DNA from: Phoronis australis
Taxonomy: Eukaryota > Animalia > Phoronida
Assembly: GCA_002633005.1 (NCBI GenBank)
Contig: NMRA01000515.1
Location: forward strand, 144,558-208,557
Length of the DNA stretch: 64,000 nt
Reading direction: 5' to 3'
The notes beneath the pieces were generated by a model. That model searched no databases. It was not told the origin of the DNA and was given only the letters and a program-made list of their open reading frames with translations. This document shows, in pieces, positions 6,070 to 48,913 of the stretch. The position numbers and the translations under genes are program-made. Within the stretch, counting starts at the first letter, position 1, and each line of letters starts with the position of its first letter.

Positions 6070-6259
6070 TTGATATCTCTTTTCAAGTAAGAAATCGTTA
6101 CATTTAAAACTGTTTCTTTTGCTAGAGAAAACTTGTAACCTAACGCGCAAGTATATACATATGGGATATGATTCACCACGTTAACAGTCTGGGTGAAGTA
6201 TTTAAAAAATCTGCCGAAAACGTGAAAGAAACTTAGGAAATCAAAGCGTGTGGGATAAA

Positions 6260-16400: not shown

Positions 16401-16873
16401 TGCGATGTGTTTACTCAGAACTTGCACTTTGACCTCGTTTACTTCCTTGTAGTTGTATATCACATGTCGAGGATATCGGCCGGGGCTTACGGGACCGATT
16501 GCTGTACAGTCGAAGCTGTGCGCAAGAAGACGATAGCCGTGCTTTTTATAATATAACTCTTGAGTTAAAGGTTGAATTATTTAAAACAATCATCGATGAC
16601 TAAGGAGTGTCTATTATACCATAAACCCAGTACATTCTCACTGTCTATGATCCAGTTGTTTTAAAAACATGCTAAGGGACCGTCAAATACACCCTGCAGT
16701 GCAGGATGTGCCGTTGCCGTTGCAGGCTGCACCCAAATAAACCGCAACGTCACCATTCGTTGTTGCTTTTGGGTGTGTCTGATTACTTCTGCACTGAGTC
16801 AGACTTGTTAGTCGGATCTCTGCTGTGGCTATCAAGTAATAAAATACTGAATGGTTTCAGTTTCAGTTTGGCT

Positions 16874-19800
16874 ATGATGACTTCAACAGAACAGGTTCAG
16901 CTGGCTGCTTCCTTGGATCTTCTGCGAGCAGAGACTACCAATCGACACCTATGCTTGTTCCTTGGCGAGCAGCTGTCAGCAACACCACAGAAAGATTTGA
17001 AAGGACTCATAGATCTTCTTAGAACCACGCCAACCACGGTATGATTAGTGGAAACTGTTTCATTTTCAGATTGATTTAATAGTTCTTGGCCAAGGTATTA
17101 TTAAAATCTGCTAGTTCCAATTTGTTGGCTTATAATCTTCTTATTTGAAGCATCACCTAGAAAGAAGCTAAATGTTTTTCACAATTAGAATATGATTATG
17201 TAAAATGGAAACCCTATACTAGTCTGTGGCATGATCTTATTGTGGAACAACATTGTTAATAGATCCAACAAGACCTTCTGTTAGAATTGATGTGTACCAC
17301 AAGACCTTCAATGCTGTTGAAAAAGTTATTCTAATGCACTAAAAAACTTTAGCATGCATGTGGCCGACATATCACATACAGAAACTGTGGTATGCTGTAG
17401 TATTCAGAGAGTAATGCTGAGACCTAAAATAGAGAAAAACAAGTTAATAGCATACAATTTATCTGATTTTATGATTGAAATATTTGAAATTAAATTGTCT
17501 GAAATATTTCTAATTGTCATAACTCTAGAATTTTTCTTGTAGAAATTTTTATACAGAATTCTGAAGATTTTCCCTATTATATAGGATAGTATAGGAGTAA
17601 ATCCTATTAATGTAGGTATCTTATAGGAAAAAGTCCTGTAGAATTTTCTACAGGATCTCCTGCTGAAGGTCCATACTATGTTAAGTTCTGCACACAATGA
17701 GCAGGCTAACTGGCTGCAAACTGCATGGTACAAATTAGTCTGTATGTGAATGTCGGGTAAATGCAGCCTGTGTCAGAGAAATGACATTGGTTTATTTGAA
17801 ATTCATTTTTGCACAGAAAAATAGATTAAAGTCAATTGTCATTGCTATATCCAGTTGCCCATCATATTCATAATGTGGGTGCTAATTGTTGTCATCTCTG
17901 TGTGAATGTCATACTTTATTCTTGTATTATAGTTCATTATAAAATTATTGAAAATTGTATTTTGTGCTATGCTTCCATTGGCATTACAGGAGTTGGTTGA
18001 TTTCATTGATCACCTAGAGGCTGAGAGTGGAGAGAGTGCTTATCACATACACCATGTTCTACGAAGCATTGGTTGCTTCCCTGTGATTCTGACTGTTTGT
18101 GTAGACCAGTTTATTGAACATTATCTCATCAGAGACAAGCATAAGGTGGACAAAATCAGACTGGATTATCTCACAGTGAGTATAGTAGATACAAATAACA
18201 CATGGTGGTAGGTTGTGTGTGCAAGACCTGCATGGTTGTTTGTTTATCAGAAACGAAACGAAACAGAAACTTGTAACTGTCATTTCCTACAATACAGGTG
18301 TCATTTGGAATTGAATTTGAACTCTGCTTAATAAATGTCTCATTTCCACATATTATCCACTGTTTTGGCTACAGTCAGTAATTTATCATGTTTATCTATG
18401 TTTATGAAATGTCAAACTTGATTTACAATGAAGTGTCTAACGTCAGCTGATTACACAGAGTGCAGTTTGTGTTGTTTTCCATGTGTTGTGTGCTACCCAG
18501 TCATTGGTGTTGCTTTTGATCTATGCAACCTTCTAACTCACCTGTTTTGACTGCACTGTTTTTAATTGCCCTAAGGGTAATTATATTTCCTCTCACCACC
18601 TAAAATGTAGAATATAAACCAGACCCACTTGGACAACCACAAAAATATGTCTCAAACCTTTTCATTTCACTGCCACCAACACTCATATGTTCAGAGCAGT
18701 TGCAAACATTTATGGTTACAGGAGAATGCCAGTACTGCTATGCATAGGGTGCATCACATTGACTTCAAATTTAAAAATAAGAAATTAGGTGTACCTTTGA
18801 ATAATAAAGAAAAGTCCTCCAAGTTGTGTAGCAGTTATTTTCAATTCACAAAAACAAATAAATACCGTATTCGCCCTAATAAGTGCCCAGGACGCTTAGA
18901 AAAATTCGCTTCAGGAAGGGGCCGCTTATTATAGCCCAAAAGTGGTTGAAACCTAGTCTCTAAAACGGGTGAAATAGTAAGCTAAACTTCATCAAATTTA
19001 TGCTCTGTGACGCATCTGTAACCTATGAAAAGTTTCTACAAAATTGCAGAGTGCATTTTTATCAAACTTTGTTGTTAAATTATGAGCATTTTTCAGAAAT
19101 CCAGTGAAACTCGCCGACTGATGCATCGCTGCCTCGTGATCGCCGATAGGTCAACTTGAATTCTGGAGTAAAAATATAGTTTCAACTCCACAAATTACCT
19201 GAAGTCCTCCTTAAGTTTTCAAAATAGCATCCCTAAGTTTTTTAATTTCCTGTGCAGTCAGGATTAACTGCAAATTAAGTCCAAATCTGTGCTAGATCGT
19301 ACCCTGCGACACAAGAAAAATCTCTGGACAAACACACATGTTGTGTGAGTGAGCGAGCGTGTACGTGTCATCAGAGTTCATTTGCCAGAGTAAACGCGAA
19401 CGATCTAGGTGTGCATTGTAACTCAGGAAATTAACACATGCGGTAAAGCAGAACGTGTTTTGTTTAGCACTTGTTGATCTCATCTGCTAAAAAATGTTCG
19501 AGAATTGTCTCGGTAAGGCCGATGTCATTGAGTCACCGGGTGACTGGATGCGTGACGGTCTAATAGTTATTTTTCGGGAGATTCGGGGGGTGTAAGGGTG
19601 TGGAAGTGTTCACTCTCAGTGGGTCATTTTGACTTTAAAAACACCAATTACGACTAATTTAATAATTCCCCCTTAAAAATAACGGAAACGTTTTTTACGA
19701 TATTAGAAACTTTCGGAAATAAGTGCCAGAATTTATTTCTTACTGATGCTATGCTACCCGTTTCATGAATAGATAGTTCCTGACAGGTACTTGAATGTAG

Positions 19801-22800
19801 CGCGCGCTTCCTCGACACGTGCTTTTAACTGAACAATGATCAAGTTTTTATTAGTCTTCAATTCGTGGTTTTCACATGTAGGAAGAAATTGGGATTCCTG
19901 TTGAGGGAGATCTGTACAGGAAAGATACAATACAATTCCCTTAACAAGTATGCTGCGCTTGTTCAGGCCATACCATAATAGGACACGTCTCCCGCAAAAT
20001 CAGCAAAACTTGCGTTCTTTTTGAAGCACAGCTAAATACCAACATAGCAGCGAGGCTTGTGGACTACAAATTCCACACACAACGGTTTTTTCAGGACTGT
20101 CTGATCTTATTGATAAATTGAAGACGTTACTGTAGAATTTTAGAACTGTATATAGGTAAGGCATTTTCGCATGTACATGGCATTCATAGACTGGGCACTT
20201 ATTTTAGCAAAGTCTGAAAACGGGTGGCAGCGCTTTGTCACGTTTTTCCCGGTGTGTGGGTGGGCGCAGGTTGTTACAGACCGGTGCTAATAGCTTTCGG
20301 TGCGAAGATTGACTGAAGACTGGTTCGAGTTAATCCTTTATTAATCCCAACCATATGTTCACAAGCCTACTCAAACCAAAACGTCCGACGTAATGTCTGT
20401 TTATGCTCCAGCCAGTGCTGCGAAGCCTTGACTTGTGTTGAACTTCTGAGATACTTCCAGCAACTGTTACACTCGTTGATTCAATAACCTGCTGTCTCTA
20501 TAGCTGGCTCTCTATTGACTATCGCTGTAACTGCTGATTCTCTTCACTGCAACTCAACTGTAATCTCCTGATTAACTTTCTTGAACTGACTTGATCTCCC
20601 GACTTGATCTTCTTGGACTCAACTGACTTAATCTCACTAACACAAACCCGTGCTTGTGTATTTATAGCCTAATTCATTGTTCTAGAACTTTTCATCAATT
20701 CAAGCACATACCAGAACTTTCTGGAACCTACCCAATCATTCTACAAACATGTACTAGTCTCTGGAATATTCCAGACTGCATTAATCACTGTCATGCTAGA
20801 GTCTTCTAGAAAGTTCCACACTATACTGCAGTAAACAAATTACATCATCACTACTATGACCTCAGTCTTCTAGAAAGTTCCACACTATTTTGTAGTAAAC
20901 AAATTACATCATCACTGTACTTAACTCAGGGGTCATGCCAATCAAACAGAATAACAAAACAATACAACTAAAAATACTGTCAGACTATATTCTGACACGC
21001 TTATTAGGGCGAATACCGTAAGCATCACATAAGTTGTAAATCAATCATTCATTTAAAACTGAATAGTTTTTAACCGTAACATGTTTCACATTGCTGTAAA
21101 CTAATATTTCATGTCAGAGCTTAGTGTGGAGACGTTTTTAGTTCACGTAGGAATTTCTTTGTCCAGCCTTTCGGTAACATTATGTGTGTTTCTCGAAAAG
21201 TAACTTATAGTGTAATTTTCTTGTGAATGTCAATATGCAATTTGATAACCATTATTACGTTTTGCACGAAGCACAGGGTAAGATCTAGTGAAACTTAATC
21301 GTATTGAGAGGGAGTTTGATTTTGTAATTCAAAACTCATGTTATTGAAGCATTAAACCTTCCTTTTTTGAGTTTAATGCAGTGGGGTGTTGTTTACCTTT
21401 TCAATAAATTCATCATGGCACCAAATCGCGCTATTGAGCGATAGGATATTCAGTGTCCAACATTTCAAATGATGTCCATGAATAAGGAAGTTATGTTTGG
21501 TCCCTTTCAGCTCAGCCGTCTTGCAGACCAGAATTAGAAATATGGGCTCTCAAAATTTTTGTGAGTTATTTGTAGAATGTTTCCTATCATGGCAAGGATT
21601 TTAAGGTCATAAGTCAATTTCACGATGGCTGTTTATGCATTATTTGAAGGGTATGGTGTACTAAATTAATGCATTGTTTTCAGGAGGAAGTCCAGTGTCA
21701 CAAGTCAGACAGAACATTGTTAATTAAATGCCTTGGCGATACTTCCTGCAATCCTGCTTTGAAACCTCAGGTACTGTTCTGACTTGAAATCATTGAATAA
21801 AATGTTTGTCATAGACTAAGAGGAGAAACATTTCTGCTGTTTGGGGACTTACCAACAAGCATTTGTTGATTAATGTGCAAAGTAATGTCTGTTGAGGTAA
21901 AAGCTCTTGAATTTATATTATTTTTTTGTAAAGGAAATGTAGCACTGAATAAAAGTTTCTAGATTTTTAGGTTCTGTGTCATAGTTGTTATGAGATAATG
22001 TTTTATAAATTGTGGGCATTCAATATTGTGTTAAAAGTGCTTGAAATGTGAAAAAATTGGCAAATGAAATTGATGACATTTTATCTCATAAAGTGTTCGT
22101 CAATACTTAGTCCTTAAACATAGCTGAACATTCACTGGAGGACTATTCACCTCTTGGTGAGAAAGATATAAACCAAAAGAAAGTAAAATTCTTGTTCAGT
22201 GTGTTATTGTTATTAAACCAAAGCAAATTACCTTGTCTGACTTACTTAAAAAAACCGCATACGGTCTTTAGTTACCAGTTATGTTGCCTCTTTTTATCTT
22301 CCTCTAACAACAACGAATCAAATCGCCATGTGTCATCTTCTAGTCTTAGTTTTTGACCTATTGACGTCATGTAGTGACCTGAATGCCAGCTAATTGGAAT
22401 ATTTAGCATGGCGTTTTAGACCCACTATGACGGCATGTCTATTCTAATTTCCGGGTCCAAATTGCATCGTCTCCTGCCATAACAAGTCATCACTAAACAT
22501 CTGAATAAGCCCAGTGAATGCTTCAGTTCACAAGTTCACCGGTAGATTAAAAAAATGTAAATGGCGGGGTGACAAGCGAAAAGCAAACAGTCAAATCTTT
22601 GAGTGAATAAGCTCTTTCAAAAGTCTTGATTTTCATGCAGTTGTATTCGCCGAGATCAGTTTTTTCATGCAATCACAATTTCGAAGTATGCAGGTTAATA
22701 TTTCATGTGCAATTCGAGTGTGATATTATGACTTGATTCCACACTTTCACTGTGTGGACTTCCAACCCGGTTTAAGAGTTATTTTGACTAATAAAATGTA

Positions 22801-25800
22801 TGAATATTATGGGATAGAGTACTGTAACTGTAATGTAAGCTTCTGATAATAATCAGTGACTTCATACTCAGCCATAAAATCTATTTAACCTTTAACCTTG
22901 CAGCATTAAAGATTATTTATTTTAGTGCTTTTGATGTTTTCATTTGTATCAGTTGTTTATTTATGTTGCAGTCCAGCTGTTTGGAGTTATACCAGTCTCT
23001 CTCAGAAAGTGACAGTGAAGTATCCAAAGTGATTGAAGACCTCTTTCAAAAATATACTGTTTTGTTTTTCGGCATCCAAAGAGATGATCCTGTCCAGGCC
23101 AAATTTCTTCAGAAGTTTGCTAAAACCAGCAAGGTAAGTAAAAGTTTTGATGGCTCCACTATGTGCTGTGTGCTGCATTTTTTCAATCTATTTATTGTTG
23201 TTATTTGGATATTTGGGAATTTTATGTTAATGTGGTCACAAAGCTATTTATCCTAACTGTGTTCATTTTAACTTAACTCTGGTATGAGTGGAACCTCGAT
23301 GTAAACTGTGAAGTTAATTGAACCATTCATACCTGCTTCAGTTAATGGCATTGATGTAAGTGGTAGGTGACACTGTTGCCTTTGAAGTAATCGCAAGGTG
23401 GCAATCACATAAGGTGACATTTGTGTTAGACTTGCGGGGTTTTCGTCCCTGGCCTGTGCACACTCAGATTTTTTAATGTGACAAATTGAGAACATTTACG
23501 TGTGATAACTTTCGTAAAACTTATTTTTAATTCAACTGGTTATTATTCGAGAAAAATAGTAGCAAATATTAATGATAAAACTCACCCTTAATTTTTGAGG
23601 ATAGTAGTGGCTGGCCCTCGGGATAACTGCAATGATACCGAAGTTGGCCGTTTATACCACACCGCAGTGACAACACTCAGCTGTTAAATCCACCTGTTTA
23701 CTGTAAAGTTATCTGGCACTGTTAACTGCAATCCAGGACTGAAGTTAATCGTTCATGCTGATTCCCAACGCCCCAAAACATTTATGAGTTGACATTAGTA
23801 TGACTGAGCCTTTTAAGATACACATTACAATGTATTAGATACAATCAAAACAAAAATTAAATCAATCTTCAATTTCAGAGTTCTGCATACACATAAGCAC
23901 AATGAGGAAATCAAGGGATTGATATTCAGAAACAGAAATAATGTTGCTTTTTATTTTTCATTTTCTAGAGACAGCACTTCCTGTTTGAGTGTGGCGAGAC
24001 GACAGACTGTGTGACAGATGGCTCCCTGACCGTCCTCCGTGCTAACACCAGTCCTGATGAGTTTGCCCAATATTTGTCCTCAGGTCAAGTTGTGGAGTAT
24101 TCATTAGAAGAACTTAAGGGCAAGGTGCTGTCTACACATTTGTTTTTAAGCCTTGGAAGTTTTCTATTACTCTGATTAATCTGTTATCTGTTGGCTTTTA
24201 ATTTTTCATTTTCTTTGCTACTAGATATTTAATTATTTTCACTTGATCACATATCTGTGTAGTTCTAAATTGTTTAAACTTTGGTATGAGATTGTGTTTT
24301 GGCAACTGGACATTGATGGAATTTGTACTTTAATCTTCAATTGCAATGCTATCTTGTTTTGTTGACCTTGCCATAAGAATGTCTTGTCATTGTGCGCATT
24401 TGCCTGTTTTAGGTGTTAGAAGTCTCCTTTTTGCCCACCCAGAGAGAACAGTATCTACTGCAGCAGCTGTATTTAGAGCAACAAAGTGTGGAAATTGGCA
24501 TTCAAACAGTCAAGATCACAAATGCTCTGTGTACTGATGAACTGTTGAACAAGGAATCCAGGCCTGCCATTCGGAAGATTTTTGAAAACGACCCATTTAG
24601 TATGTTATTTTTGAAATTTTTAGAATAATCTTCAGTTTATTTTTAACATCCATGTTTTAATCTAGTAAGGTAATTTTTGAGCATTCAGAATAACTTGACG
24701 CTAATTTTTCCAGGAGATCCCTATCATGGCATACATTGAAAATTGGATTTTACTTGCACATAGTCCATCGAACATGGTTCATGAAGGTGTCTTTGTCACA
24801 GGTGAATAATGAACAATGGTCAAGGGTACCGCAGTAGTTGCAGAAAATGCAGCATTCCTTTTTGTAATAACATGAGCTAGTGACCTTTGATAAATCAGAC
24901 CCCTGGTGCACTGAGTGGGTTGTTTGTTGTTCTGAGTTTCCACAAAACTGGGCTTACATCATGACAAAGGAACTTTGAGGCACATATTAGTTAAGGATCC
25001 AGAAGTTTAATGCTCAAACATAGGGCATCGGATTTAGTACTCACACTTCTGTGACGATTACAATCTATTTATTTCTTAGTCCTTCTCTCTTTTCCATGTA
25101 TTATAGATTTATAAAGACACTAGTCACTTACAGGGGTACTATTAGATTTATAAAGACACTAGTCACTTACAGGGGTACTATTAGATTTATAAAGACACTA
25201 GTCACTTACAGGGGTACTATTTAGATAAAACTAACTGTGGGACCACAGCAAGTGAGTAATATCATAAAAAGATGTCGATGAAGCTGTTAAATGTTGACAG
25301 TCAAATACATGAGCACATTCTTATAGATGATTACTTCATGGCAAACTAGTGTTAAAATCTCATTTACTTTGTGATAATTGTGAATGGTTTCACATAACCG
25401 CAGAAATATCAGCTTGTCATCTGTGTGCAATAACCCATTTGTAGTGGGCCGATGGGATGACAGTACAGTTGACAAGGTAATGACAGCTATGGTGAAGAGG
25501 AGGAATAATTTACTGAAGGTAAGTTGTTCTCAGTTTTTTTAGGTAAACATTTGTTAAATCATTGAATAAATTCAGTAAGCCAATAGAATTAACCAAGTAT
25601 GTTTACCGTATAGCTCATCTAGATCATAGCTTAGATTTGCGATAAAATGTGGTGCAGTCTGGTATTTAGATTAAATGTATAGTTAAGTCTTATCAGGTTA
25701 TTAGTCGTAAACTATCATGTCGAGTAAATCCTAATTGTTATGACAGTGCTATTACCAAAACAACCTTTGTCATCCCAAACCCCAAAGAAAATTAAAGCGA

Positions 25801-28800
25801 TAGATTGAAAGCTACTTTGCTGTTGTTAAGATGTATACACGTCTTGACTATTCATTTTAACCATAACTTTTCCTTATTTCATCCTGCAGTTCGTCTATAT
25901 TTTGTTTAAAAAATGCCCCCCCCCCCTATTTTCTCACAAAATTCTGAGGTCTTCAGTTAATGCATCATGGAAGTGAGACATGTCCTGAGCATTGCCAAGT
26001 CAGTCGAGTATCTCCATTGATGTGTGCCAAAAGCTCTAATGTTTTCTTGCGAATTTCAACGTCATAGTTTTAACTGGCGTTGGGATTTATTTTGAAGACG
26101 AATGCCAGTGGGAGATTGGGACAATACATCATGGGCTGGGGTGTCTGTGCACAGACTACCCACTGATCTAAGACTGCGTCGCCTGTGGGTAGACTGTCAA
26201 GTGCACGAGCAAGCACAATTAGGATGGTTGAACCATTTTTTCGTTTTTAAAGAAATTCTTCAATATCATCAGAAAGATAATGCATCCCGCACTACAAAAA
26301 TTAAAAAAAAATATCGAAATCAGGGGAAGCAGTACAAAGTTATAGCAAGTTTTGTGGAGAAATTTAGGTCACATTTTTTGGATCGGGTCAGCCATCTTGG
26401 AAGACAGTGGCATAAATTAAGAGTCTAAAACTGTTTATAAATGGTATTTCACTCGTTAAATATATTTTTGTGAGCACATGGACCCGTTTTACTCCTTCCC
26501 CCCCTCATTTCAGTCTATTCCATTATTCCTTGTGCAGGACTACACTTCGTTTTCCCAGCCTTCATATTGGTCTGTTGTTATCTCGTGTCTTGAGTTTGGT
26601 CAGCTCTTGGCTCTCATAGGCTGATGATTGTCACATGTCCTTAGGCATTTTCTTTGCTATGGCAACCTTGTTTTCAGTTCACATTTGTTCAAGCCACATT
26701 GTCGTACGTTCCAAAACTTATTAATTTTTCCCACCCTCTACCACCCTGTTTTTGTTCTTTCGTACTTCCACGTGGCTGGCACTTTTTTATTGCCCATCTT
26801 ACCAGAGATTATCATTTTTTTATTTTTATTATCTGTATTCACTATATTTACTTGAAATTCTCTTCGTCATAATAAATGACCTTATATTGCCTACCTCGGT
26901 CTCCTTGTCATCTCTGGTAACGAGCTTTGCATGTATCATTTATCCATTATTCGGGACATATGTTGATCATAAATTATTTTTACCAACGTTTTACAGTGAA
27001 AGTTAGTGAGACGTATCTTTATCTGCTATTGCATGTCATTTAACAGTTTTCACCAGAATTTAGTCACGGGTCGAGTGAAAACTTGCAAAAATTTACTCGT
27101 CGCTTGAAGACTCATTGCTATAATTCTCGTATTCCACGTTGGTTCCTAGCCTTGTGTGACTGAGTATACCAAGCCTGTCTCACTTCCGTGTCGTCATCAA
27201 TGATTACATAACACACAAGCCTGCATTCAGAATTGACTCACCTGAAGTGGGATGACATCATTAACTCCTGGGCTTCTCTAATTAACTGCATCATGCGGAC
27301 ATTAACTGCTTTGTGTAATGTGTTCATATAGTGCTATCTTTTTGTTGGAAGGAGTTGTTATAAGTGCTATTCAGAACGAAATCAATATAGATCAGTCATA
27401 GAGGTAGTAAAACTTATTGCACCACATTGCGTTCAACTATTACACAAATTCTATTCAAAATTCAGAATGATGTTTGTTTCCATTTTTTGTTACATTTCAG
27501 GTATCCTCTACTGGCACTGCTAAAGTCACTGCAGTGTTCAGTTTTCAAGCTTTCCTTACAGAGATCAGTTCTTCAAAATTAACGGAAGAAACTAGAAAAA
27601 TGGCTCTGCGCAAATACACTATGGTCATACTCCACAGTTGTAGTGAACTGCACAGTAGTTACAACCTGTGGCTGAGAGCAATACCTCCCGAGGAGGATGC
27701 AGCTTCTATATTGGATGAGAAGTTTGGAATATTTCGTTTGAAAGGTAGGAAAGTGATAATAGATTATGTCATGCTTGTATTTATCTTTTGGTTATGATAT
27801 TAACTGCTTGTAGAAATATGGTCATGTTGACATAGATTTTTTGACTCCCCCTAGTGTCGAATTTGTTTTTCGCCCGTGCTTGAAGTCTATCTTCAATAGC
27901 AACACAGTGTAAATTTGGTTCCTACAGTATGTTAAGAGCATCGCTCTGAGCCAACTAGTGCCATAAATTGCCAAATGTAACAAAGTGTTAGGCGTATTAG
28001 CTTGCTTTTGTTTACGTCACCGCGAGAATCACCTTTTAATTCAAACAGCTGTGAATAACTCCCACATGCAATGGTGTTTTGTTCGGACCCTATTCAGTGC
28101 AACTGTTATCAGCCTTTTGTTGTTTGTGCTGGGATCTCGCGGTGACGCAACATGGCATGAAAAGGCAGTTTCACCTATCATTTGACGGGCTATATTTGCG
28201 TTTTCTTAAGGCTTTGCTAGGACTATCTGGTTAGCCCAATACATTTAAAATAACAAAATTCCGTTGAAGTTAGGCTTAAATGTCTATCAAGGTTGTTGAT
28301 GGATATTCTAGAAATTTGGTATGTATGTTTCAATGGAAATGGGTATGCCTGCCATAGATTTTGGGACAACTTCAACTACTGTGGAGTGTAGCATCCACTA
28401 GTTGACAATTTTGGTATTGTTTATGTGTGACATGTGGGTCTATATTTGCCAAGGTCCTTAACAGAAGTTCACAAAATTTGACAAACAAATTGTTATCAAA
28501 AAGGAGACAGCAGCATGTGCCTTGTTTCAGACATATCTGATGTATGCTGCAGCCTATAGTGACCTTTTTAATATTAATTATATGTTACATGATACAAACA
28601 CCTTGAAATGCATAATGCTTGCGGTGCAGTCATGGGTGCATTGGTCTTGTTTTCCAACCACTCAGAATTTTTGTTTATAACAATCATAAATTAAATACTA
28701 AGACACGTTTGAGGCAATCAAGTCTTTATTGTTATTTTCCAACCTTCAAAGCTTGAAAAAGTAACATTTTGATCAATAAGTATAATGCACATTTGTTTGT

Positions 28801-31800
28801 TTTAGTTTAATAAATTAAGTCTTATCATAGTTCCTTCTAAAAATACTCATTACATGTCCCAGTGCAATTACTTTACCTTCTGAATGCTCCTCCTAAGGTG
28901 GCCAAGATGAAGGGATTGCCTATGCTGAACCTGCCATAATTGGTAAAAAGTCATACACGTCTCACTTTTTGAGTATCAATGGTCCAGAGGTGTTGAGGAA
29001 ACGACGAATCATTGAGAGGAGTTTGACCCAAGCTTGGGACCATGAGAGAACTGTGTTTGAGTTGACTGTTGCTGTATTAAGGGAAAACAAGCTGATTAAT
29101 GCACTGTCGGTAAGTAGGAGCTGGCAGGGCTGGATTATGATAGGAGTCTCTGGCGGTTCTGAACCCTCCTGCTGAGTTGCTTTTGTTTTTCTGTATGGGA
29201 AGAATATGATGTACTTGTGTTTGTCCATTGTCAATTAACCCTCCTCTACTTAATGTCAACACTGCTACAACCAAGTCATGTTTACCATTGTGTATTGTGA
29301 CGTGATCCTGATGTGCGAAAGTTGCCATATTGTATAATGTGTTATTCTTGTCAATGAATTTATGACCAAAAATTATCAAAAGAAGGAACAATTAAGGATT
29401 ACTGCTATTTTTAACTATTTGTTTTTAATGCTGAAATGCTGACCCCATTCCCTAGTTAATGTTTACTTATTTAATGGTTTGTGTGAGGTGTATGTATTAG
29501 AGGTGTTTGTATAAGGTGTATGTTGATATCTACATTTTACAGTTACTTGCAATGCCTTAAATTATGGAATAAAAAAGTCAAGGTTCACACAGTAAGGCAT
29601 ACAACATTTTGAAAGTTTGTGTTTTTGTAGACGCGTGATCGCCAGTGCCTTGAGTCACTGCAGAGTGTTCAAGTTCTGTCAGAGATGAACTTGATAACTG
29701 GGAGTTTTGAGAGGATCAGTGAAGGTAGTTTTGGAGAAGTATTCAAGGCCAAGTGGAGCAAAAATGGTGTCATCAAGAATGTTGCTGTGAAAATCTTGAA
29801 AAACATCAGCTCAGTTGTTGACCTTGACAACTACCGCAGGGAATATGAAAGTATGAGGTGAGCTTGAAGTCCTGTAAAAATTGTTGCTGCAGTTGCCAAT
29901 ATCCTGAGGTCTTCTAGCTATAACCTCACTCCATGATCTCAAAACTTGCAATAAGATCAAAACCCTTTCTGCTCAGCAACTTCTAGTGTTATGACCTCTA
30001 TACCCAATACGACACATCATTCTTAGACAAAACATTTCATATTTCAATCGCAGTAGGTTCACGACTGTCCAGCAGTCACACCTAGACCGACACATTGCTC
30101 AAGTTGATTGTCTCGCAATGATATCACGGGATGATTCAGGATTGTCTATTATAGAATGAGTTGCAGTCTCTTACTAGCCTGATCTTAAAGATATTAGTCT
30201 TTCAGGTTTACAATAATGATTGTTTAACCTTTAACTAGAGTCATGTGATATTAATTAGATGTAGACTTGTTGCTGCTATTTGCTCTGACCCACAAAACGT
30301 TGCTTCCTTCATGATTCTCATGTAAACAATATATTGTTCAAAACTGTTCACCCTATATCTGAAGCATCAACAGATAACATAACAAGTAGTACATAACAAT
30401 TGTTTCATAGTGTGAGATCCATACAGCTCTTCACAGTTGAGCATGTTGCATGCGTTTTACTTTCACCCCTAAGTCATCTTCAAAGTTTTCAAAATTCATT
30501 TTAGTAAAGCCAAGCATCCGAATATTGTGGAAGTGTACGAGCCTTACAGAAAGAGCAACCAACTGGGATTGATCATGGAGTTCATGGAGGGAGGTAGTAT
30601 TCGAGACGTGATCAATAAGAACCCTGGCGTGGGTCTGTCCAGAGAGTTCACCTACCGATGTGCACACCAGGTGGCGTTAGCTCTAGCATTTCTTCATCAG
30701 CAGCAAATTTGGCACAGAGACATCAAGGTGGACAACATATTCGTAAGTGGATCGGTTCTGTTGTGGAGGCTGGTTAAGGTTACCATACTAGCACGGAAAA
30801 GTGTATGTAGGAAATTTCAAATACTTTGGCTGTTTTTAAGGGCCATATTACTAGATGATGGTCGTTTCATGCCAATTTTAGCACCCATCATTGCAGTATG
30901 CTTTGCTTCACATTAATCTCCATTTCAAATACCATCTTTAATACATGACATTAACCAGCAATACCTTACTTTTGTCTTCAGTCAAACACACGATATGAGT
31001 GATCTGAGTGGTTAATCATTTTGATTTTTGTAAAGTGTTCTTCAATTTAACACACAGCGTGTCAGATGAATGGAATTTTATTTTGTCAAGTTTATCAACA
31101 AACACCTGAAGTGTTTTTCTTCAATTTATTGTGCTTTGTTGTGTATAGCTATCATAAAACAAAATGAAAAATTGCAGTTTTGACAACTATTTCTGGGAAA
31201 TTGAGAGGTTACTGTTACAATACTATTTCCTCGTCTATAATTGATTTGATAATGGCAGTATGTATGACACACACCTAATGCCTTGACATAACATGAGTAG
31301 ACGCTCGAAAGTACAAGTGGAAAAAGCAAAATACAAATAGAAGTCGTATGGGTGCTGGATGTTCAGTTTGCATTTTTTCATCGCCTCTTTTTTGCAGCCC
31401 AAATTCAGAAATATGAGGGGACATTTTTGTCTGTGTTGAACGCTGTTCTAATGTGTTAAAATTTAAATACATTTTATGTTCATATTAGATTTTCTCCTGC
31501 TTTGCAGCTTTCAGGGGACCATCAGACTGTGAAGATCGGTGACTTTGGTCTGGCAAAGCTGAAGGCCAACACACGTAACACCAACACACAGGACGTGGGC
31601 TCCTATCGTTATATGGCACCAGAGGTCGCTAGTGGCACAGCTATGGGCAAATATTCTGCTAAAGCTGACGTATACAGCTATGGTAAATTGTGAAACAATG
31701 ATTCATTTAATAAATGAATCTGGTTGTTTCTGGTGTAAGTTTTGATAGCTATCAAATCTTTATTTTGGTCTGCTAAGTCAGCTAAAACAGAGATTCAAGT

Positions 31801-34800
31801 TAGGCCATTAACTCTCATAATATTCCTTAGTATGATAGGATTTTATTTCTATTATCAACAAGAATATCGAGACCATCAGCGACTTAAGAAAACTCATCAG
31901 AGTTTATTGTGGAAGGCCAACCCTAAAGCTGGGAATTTGAGAATTGCGCACATTGACTGTGGGTTAAGCTGCCGGCTCCTTTGGGAACAATTCAATCATT
32001 GGTAAATGTAGCAATCTTGCAAAATGCCCCAGGATGCTGAATATCATTATAGCAAAATCAAAAGTTTACACAAAAGGCATACAGGTAAAATTTGTTTGCT
32101 TTTCCTGGCTTCTTTTGTTATTGGTAGTTTCTGCGACATTACAAATGTTGGTAGAAAACAAAAATGTTGGTGATCTTTATTCATTAACTTTACTTGTGCA
32201 CTCAAAGTTGTTTGTTTATTTTCTGTCATAAATATGTTGAGTTCTTCAAATGAAGTCTAGTTCTCAACTTGTTCCATACTCAGATTAGAACTACATTGGG
32301 AACAATTGACAGTTTGTTATTGCTTGTGGTCATACTTGGCAAATAAAATGACCCACTGGAGACCATAAACCATTCCTTATTTAGTTAGGGACAATTTGAG
32401 ACTAATTTTATAGTTGTAAGTGACATTTGCTCAGCCAGACAAAGGGGGTCTAACAGTCATGGAAGGGGGTTGGAATGAATGACTACTTGGCGCACTTTGC
32501 AAAATTGAAATGGGTTTCGACTGTGGTAGGGCTTTTTTGCTATTGCCCCCCTCCATTGTACCCCCTGTGGCTACATCAATGGTAAATGATCTAAATCAAA
32601 AGTTGAGATTTGAAATTGGCGTATACCTGTAATCTTGTTGTTTCTTATTATCGTTGATCAGTTTCTGTTTATAAAATTACATGAAATGCAGTTTCCAGTA
32701 TACCTGAAAATCAGGTTTTATGTCTTTCGTGTCGAGGAACATTGAGATAGACTGGACCCCAAGTTTCAAAAACAATGGTCACTATAACCGTAGTGCCTGT
32801 CGTTAACTGTTGTTTATGCCCATGAGGAATGAATAAACCTCTCATTAATCATAGACCCTCCACTAGTTGCTATTTCCAATGTGAATGTATTCATTTTGTG
32901 ACATCATAGGTGGTGCAGTGAGTGAAATGAACAAAACTTTTTTAGTAACTTGTTCAATGTGTCAAATTGGAATTTCTCTGGAGGTTCTTACATTTTTGAC
33001 AGTAAACTAATGAATCACCTTTGGATTTTAAGAAAAAAATTACAGCTATAATGTTGGAAAATGTGCAGCTATCACTGTCTATAAGTCATATCAGGAGACA
33101 TGAGTCGTGATGCAGTTTTCAAAATGACCCTTTGCTATGTTTTCCAGGTTTGATGTTGGCTGAGATTATGATGGGTAACCTTGTATTTAGTAACATTCCC
33201 ATCCACCAGGAGGTCTACAAACTCAAAGTATCTGCTGACTTGCCAGTCCTGTTGCCAGTATGTAACTCTTTCATTGATATTGACTTCTCAGTGACTGTTT
33301 CTGGTTTTGTAGTGTGACCTTCTCAGTAAAGGACTGCTTTCTAGCATTGTCTTCAAAATAAATCTGCACTATTGCACATTTGCATTATGGTTGTATGGGG
33401 GGGACGGCAGATGAAATAAAAATTTATGGGTGGTTGTCTTCTGAAAGAAATTTAAATTATAGGTGGTCTTTCTTGAAAGAAGTAAAATATTGTTGGTTGG
33501 TGTTTTTCGTCCTGTAAATGTTGGTAGGTGGGTATTTTTGGCCAAGCACCGACCTCCGACCTTAATACCTCTGAAAAAACTCCAAAACTCACCACAAATT
33601 CACTTGACAGATATCCAAAAACAGCAGAAACAAGCCAAGGTGCTACTGTAGTTTACACTGCAATATCAGAGATGTGTTAAATGATTCTTGGCAATATGTA
33701 CACTGTGCCATTACTCAAGTCATGGGCAACTTAATTACAGGCAATGTTGTACAGTCATTTTAGAGTGAAAATTACTGACACCAAGACTAAATTGGTGTTA
33801 ACACATTCAAAAAAATTCTCTCTGATGAATTTTTTAATAAAAAGTATGTGGAGTCAGATAGACAAGCTCCAATATTCACTTGGCAAACCAGTCTAAAAGC
33901 ATTCGTGGAATCACTTTGAGATTCGTAGATTCATGAAATTGAAAAAATCTTATTGAAATTACAGACGCCTGGTAGACAGAGACACCTGGTGGCTGCCTAA
34001 TGTATTGTTCACAGTTGTCTTTAAAAAGCAAGTTTCTGGTAACTGACATGAGTTGTGATCTCACATAGCATTTTTTGCACAATTTAAAAAATATTGGTGG
34101 TTGCATTTCAACTTAATTAAAAATTATGGGTAGTGGTTAAAGAAATAAAAGAAAAATATGGGGAGTTGATAAAAAATGAATGTGCTTTCCCCACCCCCGT
34201 CTCCCATATGTTTTGTACTGGAACAGCCCTTATTATAAACTTCAGTTGTCAATATTTAAAGAATGACAAGAACTTTAAAATAGCATAACCGTATAAGTTA
34301 CAATCGTATGAACAATGTGACATCATTGGTTCTTTGCAGGAGCATAGTGAAGAGCATTATGGTGCCCTGATGTGTAACATTGTGAAATATTGTGTGCAGC
34401 GTAACCCTCAGTTCAGACTCGCCATACAGCAAGTTTTGAACATGTTAGACAAAGGTCAAGATGAGGTCACCGCACGCTACACGCCCTCCACTGGGCTCTA
34501 TCTGCTATGTCTAGGTACTGGTAAAGGAGCCACAGGTATGGAGAGGTTCTGAAATGAGTTAGTTGATTAAGATTGGTTGAAAAAATGTTGACTATTATGA
34601 AAACGTTGATTCATACTTACAAAATATGGGTATCAGCTAGACTTTGGAGGACTATAAACCTGAAACAATACTGGTGTGGGCAGAGTTTTAATTGATACAT
34701 TCTGTTACATAGTATTGTGCAATAGATTGACATTATTTATTTTTTATTATTATTACTCCAGAATGTGAAATTAATTGTTAACTTACTAAGTATAGCAATA

Positions 34801-37800
34801 TTTCTGTTGCTCTTGAGGAATGCGTCTGGAACCATGCCGTTATTTATTCATCTTAATTCTGTTTTCTGTTTAGCTGTGATTCACAATGAACCTAGTTCAT
34901 CCTTTGTCATACTGAACAACGGGCATCCACTGCTTCTGGTTGACATGGGACTGGGTGTTTTATACTCCTACAGAAATTTTCTGGGTGAGTAGGTGACTTT
35001 CTTTGCGCTCAAGTGAATGTTTTCCCAGTATGTGAAGCTGTCGTAACTTGATAGATGTTTTGACTTATCCAGCTACTCCAGAAGTAGAGAGTTTAACTTT
35101 GGCGTACCTTTGTTAAATTTGTTCATAGTCATTCAAAATAGCTTGATATAGCTGTTTGTTGTTCATCATGTGGTGTAAATGAACATCATGGCAACAAGGA
35201 GTTTGTGATAGATGTGTTACTTTATTTTTACAAAATTTAAATTCGGTAAGGCATTTAAGTTGGTATTACAGAATACACAAGTTTCTTTGTCAAAGTTGTT
35301 GGACTCCAGTGTGGTCAATATAACAGTTAAAATTCAAATCATCATCTTTGACCGTGGTACATGGCCAAAGTCTGCGCAGTCTTTGACAATGATTGTGGAA
35401 AAATTTAATAGGTCTATCTAGAAAATTTTTGTTTATTGCCAATGCCTTCAGGATGATTATGGAAAAAGTTAAAAAAATTACGAATTGCGACTTGTAAAAT
35501 CTTATCTTGTTTCAATTGTAAAAAATTCAAAAACAACAAAAAATTGTGAAAACATGGGTTCAACAGTTTCATTGTTTGTTTGTTCTGATGCATTTATTCA
35601 GGTGACACACTGCCAAAGAACATCTTCTTAACTCATAACCACTCTGACCACACTGGGGATCTGCCTGTCTTCTTTGGTGTCCTGGCTCCTAAGCTGTTGG
35701 AGCTACCCAAGAAAGCATTGAATATTATTGCTGCACCTGAAGTAATGACTCGCGTGAAGAACTACAGGATGCATGAAATTGTCTCCCATGTCACTACTCT
35801 AGCCAATCAGCATTCAGTTGTAAGTACCGTAATATAAGATGGCAATGAAAAACTGATCGGTTTTCAGCTGTTATTTTAAAATTTAGAAAACAACTCTTTC
35901 AAGTACTGGTTGTAATTGATTAGAGTTAATTGGTATTTATTTGTTTGGTATTGATAACACAAATTTGATTGTCATGTATTAATATTGTGTTGTGTTGTAT
36001 CAATACATACTCACATAAAGTTGTGCCATCATAGGATCCTTTAGCCAACTGGGTAAGCACAAAGCCAGACTTTTCCCAGTACACCTACTTGGATGAAAAG
36101 AAAGAATTTGCAATAAAGACACTTCAAAGTCAACACTCAGAGACTTGTTTTGGTGAGCTATTAAATTGCTCATTTTGTTCTCTTAATTGTGTGTACAGCT
36201 CAGGATTTGGTCAGGGGTAGTCTGTTATACCCTATGTCGGCTCCAGCAGTCATTGTAGTTTCATGGCTTTGAGTCCCTTTGTAAGAAGACAAATGAACAA
36301 TAGAAGATGTTTAATGATGTCCTACTATTTGACATTCTTTGCTATCATTAGATAGGTTAGACTGAATAATCAAACTAGAACTAGCTTAATATTTACTGTG
36401 AGTCTCAAAGTGAGTTGGTCAACTTTCACGTCAGGGAGACCACATGATCATTTGCCATATCCTTATTTCCTTGCTGCAATCTGATCTGTTTTTCACACAT
36501 TTGAAAACTTCTGTGTTAGTTACTTTTGTGAAAAGGTTAAATTACGTATTACTGTCATTGAATTTTGATACAACAGTCCTTCAAAGTAATGTTTATGTTT
36601 TTTATGCGCAAATAAGTTGGTGCAATAATTGAGAGCTGAGAACGCACTCATTATTGTGAAAAACATTAGCAATGAACACCACCTGCCTAAACATTATGAA
36701 AAGTGGTTAGTAAGTGTTACCTCACATCACACAGTTTTCCCAATTTCCAGGCTTTGTTTTGTACCACAATGAACATCCTGTCCTTGGCTACTCAGCTGAC
36801 TCAGGATTCAACAGTCACTTGTATGAGACTGTTTATCAAGCTGACCTGGTGATAGTTGATGCTCGTCTGTCCTCTTCTTATGAACATGCCAGTGTAAGTG
36901 TCAGCAGTTTTACACTACCCACAATGCACTGAATTTGTATTCTTTGGTAATATTCATCATGTCAACTTAAGTCAACTGGTCTGTTGTATTGCAGCCATTG
37001 ATTGGATTACTGACAGTTTTTATATATCACAATACTGTCTTGATTGTAGATGATGAGAATAGTAGTTTTGCACTGCATAAACAATGCATTTTACAGACTG
37101 GTATCATGATTGACTGTTCCTAATACTAACTGTAATTTTGTGAAATCAAGCTGTTGTTTGTTATATTTTATGGAATTTTAATAGCACAAGAAATCACCAT
37201 TCTAAGGTTTTGTGTAGTAATACTAAATTGTAGCAAATCAACTGCCATAATACTAAATTGTAGCAAATCAACTGCCATAATACTAAATTGTAGCAAATCA
37301 ACTGCTATAATACTAAATTGTAGCAAATCAACTGCCATAATACTAAATTGTAGCAAATCAACTGCCATAANATGCACTGAATTTGTATTCTTTGGTAATA
37401 TTCATCATGTCAACTTAAGTCAACTGGTCTGTTGTATTGCAGCCATTGATTGGATTACTGACAGTTGTCTATTTTTTATATATCACAAAACTGTCTTGAT
37501 TGCAGATGATGAGAATAGTAGTTTTGCACTGCATAAACAATGCATTTTACAGACTGGTATCATGATTGACAGTTCCTAATACTAACTGTAATTTTGTGAA
37601 ATCAAGCTGTTGTTTGTTATATTTTATGGAATTTTAAGAAATCACCATTCTAAGGTTTTGTGTAGTAATACTAAATTGTAGCAAATCAACTGCCATAATA
37701 CTAAATTGTAGCAAATCAACTGCCATAAATGAGGTAGACACATCTTACCACTTCATTTTCCAAATTTCAATCACAACAACAAACATTAATATTTGTAAGT

Positions 37801-38993
37801 GAGTAGCACAATCATTCACTCTCTCATGTGGCAGGCAAATTGTGGAACTGATTTTAAAGTGATATTTAATTTTAGTCAAAACTTAGTGTTCATACCAACT
37901 TAAAATGAACATTAATCATGATTGTTTTTGGCTTTTGAATATTGATTTCTTTTCCTCTAATCATGGTGGTAAAACTGCTTTTTGATAAACTATTTTGCTT
38001 TTTTCAGTTTGTCGAGGTACAAAAGTTCAGCCAGGTTAAACAGGTGAGAAGATTGAAAATCCCAGTCCCCACGTCAAAAAAAAAAAAAAAATATTCAAAG
38101 TAAAAAGTTTTCATGGCATTCATTTTGAAAATCTTATTGTTTACAGTCATTTTAGTGCTTCAAACCAAACACACCAGAATACACACACATAATAAATCTA
38201 TGAGCTTACAGATGGGAGGTTCTTTATAGAATTCATAATAGCGTTGTCATGGCAACAATTCCTATATGTCTACCAAGCATCTGCTGAAGCAGCTGAAAAC
38301 TCATCTTCCATCACAAAAGCAGATTTTGATTTAGACCACTTACCTTGAATTGGTCTCAAATTGTCATGTAGTCAAATTGGAGATCATGTCAAAGCTTCAA
38401 AGATCGTCAGACCAGACTCTTTAAGTTGAATTGTCACGGCATGTCATTTTATGCACTGCCCATTGTCTCGCAGAATAACTGTCAGTTCTTTGCAAATTCT
38501 GAAATCTTTTCTCGTTTGAATAAGAAACTAGTTGTGACCAATGTAAAAGTTGTCATCCTGAACGGCACATGGGTTTATAGCTGTTTTAATGCTTACTTTA
38601 TGAAATGATTATTTTTGTGCAACTTTGCAGTTTGAATACATTTTTTTAACTTGTATTTAGCAATTAGTAGCTATCTCACTACCACCAAGTAAAGGAAAGT
38701 TTCCTTAGAAAGTGGTAACAAATGCATTCTTTGACTTACGCTGATGTAAATTGCATAACCGTTTCATGTTTTAGCATTTCATTTCCTTTTTTCTGCTATG
38801 AAATGTTGTTGTTGGTTTCTAGCACAAGAACGTGTACGTGATTGGATATGGTACTGAAAGTGAAGCGCCTTCTTCAGCCGACTATCCAGAACTGAATGTC
38901 TTAGAGACTGGGTCCTTCTATGCACTTGACACTAAACCTCACCATCCTTTGGACACCTCTGATCAATACCCATCACTAGAGAGGGCAGTGTGA
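16874..38993 (+). CDS. 20-exon gene, 1071 aa: SIR2-like + DUF5753-like + TKL-type Ser/Thr protein kinase + RNase Z-like metallo-beta-lactamase
   Basis: Exons 16874-17038, 17990-18175, 21684-21770, 22972-23133, 23969-24124, 24413-24599, 25445-25518, 27501-27744, 28898-29109, 29631-29857, 30505-30742, 31508-31682, 33148-33257, 34340-34535, 34874-34984, 35602-35819, 36035-36152, 36751-36893, 38008-38043, 38823-38993. All introns GT-AG, phases compatible, 3216 nt from ATG to TGA with no internal stop. Confidence 0.88.
17530..17660. repeat. Short imperfect palindrome (MITE-like) in intron 1
   Basis: tcttgtagaaattttt...aattttctacagga termini with internal cctat/atagg inversions. Confidence 0.5.
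20236..20997 (-). mobile_element. Solo LTR (762 bp) with 5-bp TSD, inserted into the right TIR of the DNA element
   Basis: TGTCA...TGACA termini; TSD CGCTT at 20231-20235 and 20998-21002. Minus-strand TATAAATA (20659-20666) and AATAAA (~20337-20342). Confidence 0.85.
20679..20881 (-). promoter_or_regulatory. Cluster of heat-shock elements upstream of the LTR TATA box
   Basis: Perfect 3-unit HSEs aGAActTTCtgGAAc (20713-20727) and cTTCtaGAAagTTCc (20803-20817, 20867-20881). Partial HSEs at 20679 and ~20763. Confidence 0.7.
25104..25224. repeat. 39-bp tandem repeat x3 in intron 6
   Basis: Unit tagatttataaagacactagtcacttacaggggtactat starts at 25104, 25143 and 25182. Confidence 0.95.
26102..26200 (+). 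mobile_element. Degenerate THAP-domain remnant (DNA transposon relic) in intron 7
   Basis: VGDWDNTSWAGVSVHRLPTDLRLRRLWV resembles THAP CxVxGCxNT...GVSxHxFPxDxxxRxxW with the cysteines lost. Confidence 0.5.
26560..26975 (+). repeat. Dispersed repeat; inverted copy at ~51230-51660
   Basis: aaatgacctta...cctacctcggtctcctt...catatgttgatc at 26874-26968 matches the reverse complement of ~51490-51590. Confidence 0.65.
27838..28652 (+). mobile_element. Older HINE-like element of the same general type as 10326-11480
   Basis: Shares aaatttggtatgtatgtt and ttcacaaaatttgac motifs, and has a 3' end gggtgcattggtcttgtt. Confidence 0.4.
29700..34450 (+). other. Protein kinase domain (TKL-like Ser/Thr), all catalytic motifs present, exons 10-14
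   Basis: ISEGSFGEVF, VAVK, RREYESM (alphaC Glu), HPNIV, IMEFMEGG, HRDIKVDN, KIGDFG, GSYRYMAPE, ADVYSYG, CVQRNPQFR. Confidence 0.95.
34495..38993 (+). other. RNase Z/BN-like metallo-beta-lactamase domain, exons 14-20
   Basis: LLCLGTG, PSSSF, LLVDMG, FLTHNHSDHTGDL (HxHxDH), QHSETCFG, GYSADSG, VIVDAR, YEHAS, VYVIGYG. Confidence 0.9.
36923..37730. repeat. ~450-bp duplication across an N at 37371, containing a 30-bp tandem repeat (about 5 vs 2 copies)
   Basis: Unit taatactaaattgtagcaaatcaactgcca; the second copy restarts atgcactgaatttg at 37372. Explains the ILNCSKSTA ORF. Confidence 0.85.
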
Positions 38994-39069
38994 GATGTGT
39001 GTGGGCACTTAGCAGGAATACTTATTGACTGTTGATATTAAACCTACTGGTTGAACTGTTTGCGTTCAA

Positions 39070-47940: not shown

Positions 47941-48913
47941 AAGGTTCACAGTTACTGTAAGTAGAAAACAGAGTATTTTCAACATATTCTACATTTAAAG
48001 ATTCAGTTCTAGAATAAGTCAAGCAAAAAAGCATACTAAGCTCAGATTAGGACTTTTAACCGATATTTAAGCCAACTTAACACTGACACAAAAGCAACAA
48101 TCTGAATACCTTAATTACCAATCCTTTTTAAAAATTTAATTCGAGTTCAATAACTTCTTGCAAAATATATCAAATCAGAAAGCATGTCTAACCCTTTGTG
48201 CGAGTTACACTGGATGACTATGAGAAAAAGCCGCAAGTCTTGAACCAGTGAATCTATTCCATGATACTGTGAGGACAAAGTTTTAGTTGAAAAATGTGTT
48301 CATCATTACGAGGAGGTACTTATTACCCAACAGCAGGTGACAAAACTTATTGTAGGTAAATTCACCAAAAGACGGTTTACTATCTTTTAAAAAAATCTTT
48401 GTTGATAACCCAAAAGTGCTACAGAGACATGACTTCAAACGTAAAGCTGATTTTCAGGAACTATTGTGAGAAAAGAATTGGGCTTCAGATACCAAGAGCT
48501 GTTTGTGCAGATCAACACTTGGGATGAAAAATTAATTTCCCAAAAAAATTCCAGAACATTTTGATAAAATCCTACTAAAATCACAAGGAAACCTGTCAGA
48601 AATCCTGAAAATATTATATAGATTAAACACAGACATTTTTGGCAATGTATCAACACACAAATCTCATAAAAACTATGCCTGGGTAAAAAGTGCGATTAAT
48701 TCACACATTCTGACAAACAAGATAGCAAAGTCAATCAATACAAAAATAATTTCAAATAGTAGTAGAAAACAAAACTCTAAATCTTCTGATCTCATTTTTT
48801 ACCCAAAACAGGGTTGTTATTATCCGTCACATCACCTGATACTGAATCCAACCCCATTTTGATAACATAGTAGCTCAAGGTAATCTGCCACCATTTATGA
48901 GTGAAAATCATGA

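Follow-up and report, generated by a model that had tools for sequence, protein, structure and literature searches.

We describe a gene of the phoronid Phoronis australis that encodes a SIR2-like domain, a middle domain (here called X), a protein kinase and a metallo-beta-lactamase (MBL) fold hydrolase in one protein of 1071 amino acids (aa). The gene lies on the + strand of a 64,000-nucleotide (nt) stretch of contig NMRA01000515.1, which we call the window and to which all coordinates of the gene refer. New is that, at the level of sequence, its SIR2 plus DUF5753-like half matches a bacterial protein encoded beside the same MBL subfamily. The gene is a variant of the bacteria-derived SIRim kind and is notable for a two-gene module that was kept together. 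We read the animal proteins as one expressed family of ligand-gated immune or stress kinases, built around the halves of a bacterial cassette and carrying a phosphodiesterase that would erase the nucleotide signal; we put the probability of this reading at about 0.45. Known immune links from bacteria to animals are mostly single domains (cGAS, STING, gasdermin, viperin, TIR, FAM118). Here, two neighbouring bacterial genes would have stayed together in one animal protein for over 600 million years and would have acquired a kinase.

A single expressed gene encodes all four domains

The gene is composed of the following features, the coding exons resting on the splice model and on RNA joints.

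16482..16570, + strand: 5' non-coding exon of at least 89 nt, spliced to 16861 (RNA contig and read)
16874..38993, + strand: coding span, 20 exons, 1071 aa
16874..17038, + strand: coding exon 1
17990..18175, + strand: exon 2
21684..21770, + strand: exon 3
22972..23133, + strand: exon 4
23969..24124, + strand: exon 5
24413..24599, + strand: exon 6
25445..25518, + strand: exon 7
27501..27744, + strand: exon 8
28898..29109, + strand: exon 9
29631..29857, + strand: exon 10
30505..30742, + strand: exon 11 (HRD)
31508..31682, + strand: exon 12 (DFG, APE)
33148..33257, + strand: exon 13
34340..34535, + strand: exon 14 (kinase end and MBL start)
34874..34984, + strand: exon 15
35602..35819, + strand: exon 16 (HxHxDH)
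36035..36152, + strand: exon 17
36751..36893, + strand: exon 18
38008..38043, + strand: exon 19
38823..38993, + strand: exon 20, coding part with stop
38994..40500, + strand: probable 3' untranslated region (UTR), end approximate (stranded depth, contig end, AATAAA)
16901..24103, + strand: SIR2-like (SIRim-type) domain, aa 10-245, exons 1-5 (Pfam, homologue alignment)
24116..29106, + strand: middle domain X, aa 250-490, exons 5-9, DUF5753-like alpha/beta (bacterial homology, model)
29700..34456, + strand: protein kinase, aa 515-780, exons 10-14 (Pfam, motif alignment)
34493..38927, + strand: MBL-fold hydrolase, aa 793-1050, exons 14-20 (Pfam, profile, alignment)

An earlier note, made from the letters of the window alone, had proposed that 20 GT-AG exons form one in-phase open reading frame of 1071 aa, and had asked for its joints to be checked against RNA. 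Both the splice model and this check bear the proposal out. The exons between 16874 and 38993 splice to 3216 nt, that is 1071 aa plus stop, and stranded RNA-seq reads support 19 of 19 coding joints on the + strand in each of three runs of raw reads from a single study, of which about 18-19% per run was covered. Eight of these joints fall in exons 1-9 and 11 in exons 9-20. The weakest, 21770>22972 and 34984>35602, were covered by two reads in one run and by 6-19 in the others. The joint listed as 29858>30506 is one base off the exon model with the intron length unchanged (647 nt), a shift that we attribute to an allele at 30505. In a second study, a 2063-nt contig extends from exon 10 into the 3' UTR, and among the reads and contigs examined no single molecule covers the whole mRNA. 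The same note had placed the junction of kinase and MBL inside one exon, and indeed the end of the former and the start of the latter both lie within exon 14. That the N-terminal exons and the kinase-MBL exons are two separate genes is very unlikely judging from the sequences, since full-length collinear homologues occur in five phyla.

The 5' non-coding exon is joined to the coding part by the joint 16570>16861, seen in one contig and one read, and an in-frame stop lies upstream of the ATG. At the other end, stranded depth runs to the 40222-40668 bin, the contig ends at 40499, and AATAAA is found at 40483 and 40494. Among the coding variants listed in the read tables, 11 of 15 are silent. We conclude that the gene is real, expressed and under constraint. 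The window has 37% GC and corresponds to AT-rich animal DNA. An exon-like frame at 24714-24801 and an acceptor at 25404 were considered as additional parts of the gene and rejected, as both are absent from the RNA joints listed.

The SIR2-X half matches a bacterial protein encoded next to the MBL gene

The N-terminal half of the animal protein (SIR2 and X) matches the whole of a bacterial protein of about 540 aa. A scan for the MBL motifs in one genome per species returned 69 loci, eight of them of the MBL subfamily in question. At six of these eight, the adjoining gene encodes a SIR2-X protein of 533-549 aa, and at four of the six a gene for a membrane-anchored ThsA_Macro protein stands alongside (PF20016, E 1e-20 to 1e-37). 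Metagenomes yielded 28 MBL loci, which comprise two repeats of the genome locus L001, four new pairs of SIR2-X and MBL (two of them cut by contig ends) and 22 others. When relatives of three carriers were searched for SIR2-X only, 0 of 300, 0 of 300 and 1 of 200 were positive, and the single locus found again has an adjoining MBL gene. Altogether 11 distinct loci link SIR2-X with MBL, four of them with a Macro gene, and the distribution of the cassette in bacteria is very patchy. One of the carriers, Poseidonocella sedimentorum (locus L006), is a cultured bacterium, in which the locus is a candidate new anti-phage system.

Profile comparison supports the homology of X in the two groups. The animal X profile scored 28-91 bits on the C-terminal half of all nine bacterial SIR2 proteins tested, seven of the nine matches having E<1e-5 (Z=5.8e9), compared with at most 6.7 bits on 1800 shuffled sequences and 14 bits on other open reading frames in a set of 6350. 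Animal and bacterial X share an R..Y..Q...E and a T...TN signature, and the structure model of X is a confident alpha/beta domain with a predicted local distance difference test (pLDDT) value of 91.9. The earlier note had guessed a DUF5753-like domain here. PF19054 (DUF5753) matched none of the 10 animal proteins scanned; among the nine bacterial X domains one exceeded the cut-off (24.9 against 23.4), one gave E=4e-4 and seven had no match. These bacterial matches back the guess at one remove. X is remotely similar to the DUF5753 of the XRE-DUF5753 regulators of actinomycetes (PMC10364602), from which it differs in having neither a helix-turn-helix nor a DUF397 partner and in being joined to SIR2. 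PLD-type catalysis by X was rejected, as the HxKxxxxD (HKD) motif is absent from 17 of 17 rows.

The closest solved structures of the bacterial SIR2 half are FAM118B and ThsA. In the window protein, the SIR2_2 match of a single exon is marginal (E=0.01, exon 4); 8 of 10 homologues scanned passed the cut-off, and the model aligns to homologues over aa 2-240. Both the histidine and the asparagine of the active site, H152/N112 in ThsA and H206/N163 in FAM118B (bioRxiv 10.1101/2024.09.18.613514), are required for NADase activity in ThsA and FAM118 (bioRxiv 10.1101/2024.09.18.613514; PMC12700824). The bacterial SIR2 proteins keep the GAG/GSG loop and the catalytic Asn, and carry at the His position a His in four and an Asn in five of nine cases; the four Macro-linked proteins all have Asn there. 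At this position, each of the 17 animal rows has Leu, Phe or Tyr. The catalytic Asn is kept in 16 of 16 homologues, and the window protein has Cys92 in its place, Leu134 for the His and Gly-Glu instead of GAG. Because the catalytic His is missing from every animal copy, the animal SIR2 is probably a non-catalytic sensor. Hence, of the SIR2 assignment made earlier the SIR2_2-type domain stands, and an NADase is not what the residues suggest. The window protein has this domain in common with the SIRim proteins (human FAM118B/SIRanc and FAM118A, bacterial ThsA), which likewise place a bacterial defence-type SIR2 in animals. Unlike the SIRim NADases, however, the animal copies lack the catalytic His and are fused to X, kinase and MBL. 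Among the fusions named in the SIRim papers are those to NLR-like and Macro domains (bioRxiv 10.1101/2024.09.18.613514; PMC12700824), and the words "kinase" and "lactamase" do not occur in the main text of bioRxiv 10.1101/2024.09.18.613514.

The bacterial cassette also resembles type II Thoeris, in which an ADP-ribose (ADPR) conjugate activates a membrane-Macro effector (bioRxiv 10.1101/2024.01.03.573942). A transmembrane ThsA_Macro protein encoded beside an NAD-processing-type gene is common to that system and to the four Macro-linked loci. The cassette differs by having SIR2-X and MBL instead of the TIR protein, and the animal protein has no Macro domain. No TIR-domain ThsB was found among the adjacent genes scanned, a result that concerns these neighbours and not whole genomes, which were not searched for TIR.

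Further observations were made at the bacterial loci. At L088:2845-6781 and L004:2635-6720, genes for FHA and Ser/Thr kinase proteins lie directly upstream of MBL and SIR2-X in an operon-like arrangement. These kinases were rejected as orthologues of the animal kinase, to which they are only 25-31% identical, a level that generic kinases reach as well. In a Chloroflexota locus that lacks SIR2-X, the gene immediately upstream of MBL encodes a kinase-AAA-TPR protein. Tandem pairs of MBL genes of this subfamily stand at L001:4797-6732, L082:227-1829 and L094:2-1417, one gene having a signal-peptide-like N-terminus. The genome of L001 encodes a second SIR2 (G003:C42:53770-54657, 1022-aa frame, no X match). 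At L104:1353-4997 (G002), an AAA_21 and DUF4276 pair and two DUF488 genes were found close to the cassette, in an insertion downstream of murC-murB.

The four-domain protein is shared by distant animals

A full HMMER search with the HxHxDH exon gave 37 proteins. One of these, an amphioxus protein of 544 aa, corresponds to the SIR2 and MBL ends of the model and has no counterpart of the part between them. Word-based searches with exons 8 and 16 alone found no match, the queries being too short to show absence. With a profile of the MBL subfamily, 18 proteins of 495-2000 aa were recovered at E<=1e-15 (7999 candidates scored). Fourteen of them combine kinase and MBL (10 also list SIR2_2), and four amphioxus proteins combine SIR2 and MBL. 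The carriers are the sponge Corticium, the corals Porites, Acropora and Montipora, the myriapods Chamberlinius and Strigamia, the acorn worm Glandiceps, the brittle star Amphiura, three other records and the four amphioxus proteins. Vertebrates, insects, nematodes and molluscs are not represented among the 18 proteins, although the search was too weak to call the family absent there. Full-length homologues are collinear with the model over about 1050 aa at 35-39% identity; by domain, identity is 26-31% for SIR2, 36-46% for the middle domain, 35-45% for the kinase and 39-47% for MBL. Their names are "uncharacterized" or automatic, and none reflects a characterisation. All four domain calls of the earlier note stand, the DUF5753 part through the bacterial homologues only. 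In the literature searched we likewise found no paper on the architecture or on the cassette, in line with the claim that no such protein had been described; the Burroughs-Aravind surveys and the SIRim supplementary table may list them. In corals and further invertebrates, the family offers an unstudied group of kinases, and work on the bacterial cassette could lead to their ligand.

Some family members depart from the common form. Acropora millepora has a form with two kinase domains (P0051/P0103), and Acropora muricata one with 480-590 additional N-terminal residues (P0052/P0076). A Strigamia record is joined to RPA1 (P0057), probably a gene-model artefact. Sponge-like full-length copies on JGI contigs of about 10 kb are apparently intronless (P0059, P0090-P0099). 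An ESM Atlas search with the amphioxus protein returned only MBL/Apyc1-labelled bacterial clusters (0.75-0.76), which serves as a lead only, and one with the middle domain gave no usable match.

Two trees address the origin of the family. The animal rows are separated from the others by a single branch both in the SIR2-X tree (22 rows, support 100/100) and in the MBL tree (63 rows, support 97/94); the latter left out 38 near-duplicate or isoform ids, two L001 copies and fragments of fewer than 185 profile columns. We infer from the sequences a transfer from bacteria to animals, because SIR2 and MBL lie in separate genes with intact SIR2 motifs in bacteria and because SIRim proteins provide a precedent, for which such a transfer has been argued (bioRxiv 10.1101/2024.09.18.613514). 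The fusion is common to sponge, corals and bilaterians. The earlier note had taken the protein to be independently built. This is not supported, as the genes for SIR2-X and MBL already adjoin each other in bacteria and so wide a range of animals has the fusion.

A kinase with intact motifs is joined to an MBL domain that resembles phosphodiesterases

The kinase is matched strongly by Pfam in the exons of the window, and its catalytic motifs are all intact (VAxK K545, alphaC E562, HRD D639, DFG D658 and APE), in agreement with the earlier claim of an active kinase, which is a prediction from these residues. The HRD was listed for, or missing only together with the kinase from, 15 of 16 homologues, and reads HGD in Amphiura. 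The animal kinase scores alike against Nek7, MLK, CDK and BRAF.

For the MBL domain (Lactamase_B E=2e-4 in the per-exon Pfam search), a nuclease of the RNase Z type had been proposed. The domain shares with tRNase Z (ELAC1/2, B. subtilis RNase Z, E. coli ZipD) the MBL fold, an LGTG start, HxHxDH and the His and Asp metal ligands. The window protein keeps H855, H857, D859, H860, H950, D972 and H1001, and Gly1023 replaces the motif-V His. All 16 homologues tabulated retain six metal ligands and the next His, and a Gly stands at the position of the motif-V His, the last zinc His, in each of 16 animal rows. In the animal rows parsed, 14 of 14 have 22 aa from the third His to the Asp, compared with 71 in B. 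subtilis RNase Z (reference 1Y44, H140-D211) and 24 in 7T28 (both from alignments), so the tRNA-binding flexible arm is missing. Lacking both this arm and the motif-V His, the domain does not bear out the nuclease proposal.

The profile of the domain has its top PDB matches with 7T28 and 1ZKP over the whole domain and matches RNase Z over the N-terminal half only; in one member, this half has RNase Z as its best match. Apyc1 and YhfI are class II cyclic nucleoside monophosphate (cNMP) phosphodiesterases (PMC9117128). With them (7T28, 7U2R; 1ZKP) the animal MBL shares the arm-less fold, the short spacing, the best sequence and fold matches and the C-terminal motifs, HAS and (H/G)YG in 7T28. It differs from Apyc1 in being host-encoded and fused, in lacking the motif-V His and in having a Pro aligned to the 7T28 Glu after HxHxDH, a column that would correspond to the catalytic E74 of Apyc1 (PMC9117128). 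Pfam Apyc1 (PF23023) reached at best 13 bits against a cut-off of 50, with one of 10 proteins listed; precomputed domain lists of the homologues also name this Pfam family, giving no scores. Judged by sequence, the domain resembles small-molecule phosphodiesterases of the Apyc1/YhfI type, and since it stays below the Pfam cut-off, the family is a relative and not a member of Apyc1. Of the two kinds of hydrolysis considered earlier, cleavage of a cyclic phosphodiester fits better, and that of RNA or tRNA is not supported.

Structure prediction and fold comparison, also suggested earlier, were carried out on the homologue from Glandiceps, whose AlphaFold model has a pLDDT of 81 and a predicted template-modelling score of 0.59; a wide fold search of the full-length model listed rows for kinase and MBL only. 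The MBL fold matched 1ZKP with Z 26.4 (root-mean-square deviation 2.5 over 239), 7U2R with Z 25.9 (2.5 over 236) and ZipD about equally well (Z 25.8).

Proposed mechanism and alternative explanations

In the mechanism that we propose, the cassette would have passed from bacteria to an early animal (or an earlier eukaryote), where it was fused and the kinase inserted between X and MBL. The SIR2 fold would have lost NADase catalysis and, with X, would bind NAD/ADP-ribose-type or cyclic-nucleotide ligands. SIR2-X is predicted to oligomerise on its ligand, as SIRim proteins do, which would bring the kinase domains together and turn on the kinase as the output. The MBL, with six of the seven usual metal ligands, would hydrolyse a cyclic phosphodiester, a cNMP or a cyclic ADP-ribose derivative, and would set the duration of the signal rather than destroy RNA. 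In the bacterial cassette, SIR2 may make an ADPR-derived signal that the membrane-Macro protein, where present, executes and the MBL clears. SIR2-X would then stand in place of the Thoeris TIR enzyme, with an eraser added, as the likeness to type II Thoeris suggests. A stronger version, that an antiviral bacterial cassette was captured whole before the sponge-bilaterian split, was rewired to a kinase and still acts as an innate-immune receptor for a nucleotide signal in sponges, corals, myriapods and ambulacrarians, is tentative and somewhat unlikely. If true, a multi-gene bacterial defence module was kept together in animals, which would point to an unknown animal immune second messenger.

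Several observations weigh against the mechanism set out at the start of this section. Activity, ligand and immune role of the animal protein are predicted. Both trees lack an outgroup and do not by themselves give the direction of transfer. The bacterial genes are mostly flanked by housekeeping genes and not by defence islands (76 of 119 flanking open reading frames were scanned against NCBIfam), and conflict-type neighbours occur in only one of four 20-kb regions. None of the PADLOC models matches MBL or X, and the X profile found no match on the plasmids and phages searched. Ten of the 11 linked loci were found through MBL. At 22 of the 28 metagenome MBL loci there is no SIR2-X in the available DNA, many of these loci being short or apparently eukaryotic; the MBL therefore also lives alone. 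Expression is steady across the three RNA-seq runs, whose treatments are not stated. Fold scores do not separate phosphodiesterases from RNase Z, the values for ZipD and ELAC1 being close, and the loss of one zinc His in all animal copies may indicate a weak or dead MBL. Finally, the amphioxus form has neither X nor kinase; whatever SIR2 and MBL do there as a pair, they do it without a kinase. As SIR2-X is a bacterial unit, this form most simply lost X and kinase.

Much of this would suit a sensor outside immunity, in which cassette and fusion protein would detect or remove cyclic phosphates or products of NAD breakdown in ordinary metabolism or under stress, with the kinase reporting their presence. 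The housekeeping flanks at most bacterial loci, the steady expression, the occurrence of the MBL as a protein by itself in bacteria, in a bdelloid rotifer and in Symbiodinium, and a conservation that is slow and similar in the four domains (26-47% between phyla) speak for such a sensor. Nevertheless, we consider it unlikely: the SIR2 is of the ThsA/FAM118 type, which is linked to defence (bioRxiv 10.1101/2024.09.18.613514), a Thoeris-type Macro partner is present at four loci, and the cassette is extremely patchy in bacteria. The immune role suggested in the earlier note is in this way supported by the SIR2 and Macro context in bacteria and not by the flanks. Should it fail, what remains would still be an ancient, unannotated family of nucleotide-sensing kinases of probable bacterial origin.

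In RNase L and IRE1 a sensor, a kinase and a KEN nuclease follow each other in this order. The earlier note had modelled the phoronid protein on them, with a kinase that licenses cleavage of tRNA or other RNA by the MBL, which would shut down the cell. The order of sensor, kinase and hydrolase is indeed the same, arm-less MBL nucleases exist, and both the RNase Z match of one member's N-terminal half and the fold scores could be read in this sense. We nevertheless regard this model as improbable, as the flexible arm, the motif-V His and a beta-CASP domain are all missing from the animal protein, and SIR2 and MBL persist without a kinase in amphioxus and at most bacterial loci. Moreover, the C-terminal domain is an MBL and not KEN, the sensor is unrelated, and the predicted substrate is not RNA. 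Of similarly low probability is that SIR2, X and MBL are pseudo-enzymes which serve as binding or scaffold modules (the MBL as a dimer) around an active kinase, or else that SIR2 processes NAD independently of the His. The first variant would explain why animal copies have lost both the SIR2 His and the motif-V His; yet retention of the other MBL metal ligands and the next His throughout would be unusual for a dead enzyme, and Gly at motif V is also found in two of nine parsed bacterial MBLs. The second draws on the five bacterial SIR2 proteins without the His and on the Asn kept in the homologues, but the window protein has lost this Asn as well.

Other features of the window

Near-identical tandem duplicates, each flanking a single N, were noted by eye at about 36920-37730, 4290-6070, 48860-50690 and 57760-60130; they are probably uncollapsed haplotypes or scaffolding artefacts, and the one in intron 18 touches no exon. 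Intronic repeats at about 18900-21000, 26400-27000 and 27900-28280 show depth on both strands and many loose ends and are likely transposon-derived elements. A 209-aa open frame at 8289-8915 on the - strand has no Pfam match over the cut-off. A multi-exon gene at 48968-57047 on the - strand converges on the SIR2-kinase-MBL gene at a distance of about 9 kb. Its upstream exons are EF-hand-like by eye only, with no Pfam match there, and it ends in a death domain, for which Pfam Death gives E=1.5e-5 at 51175-51402 and whose second half lies at 48968-49129.

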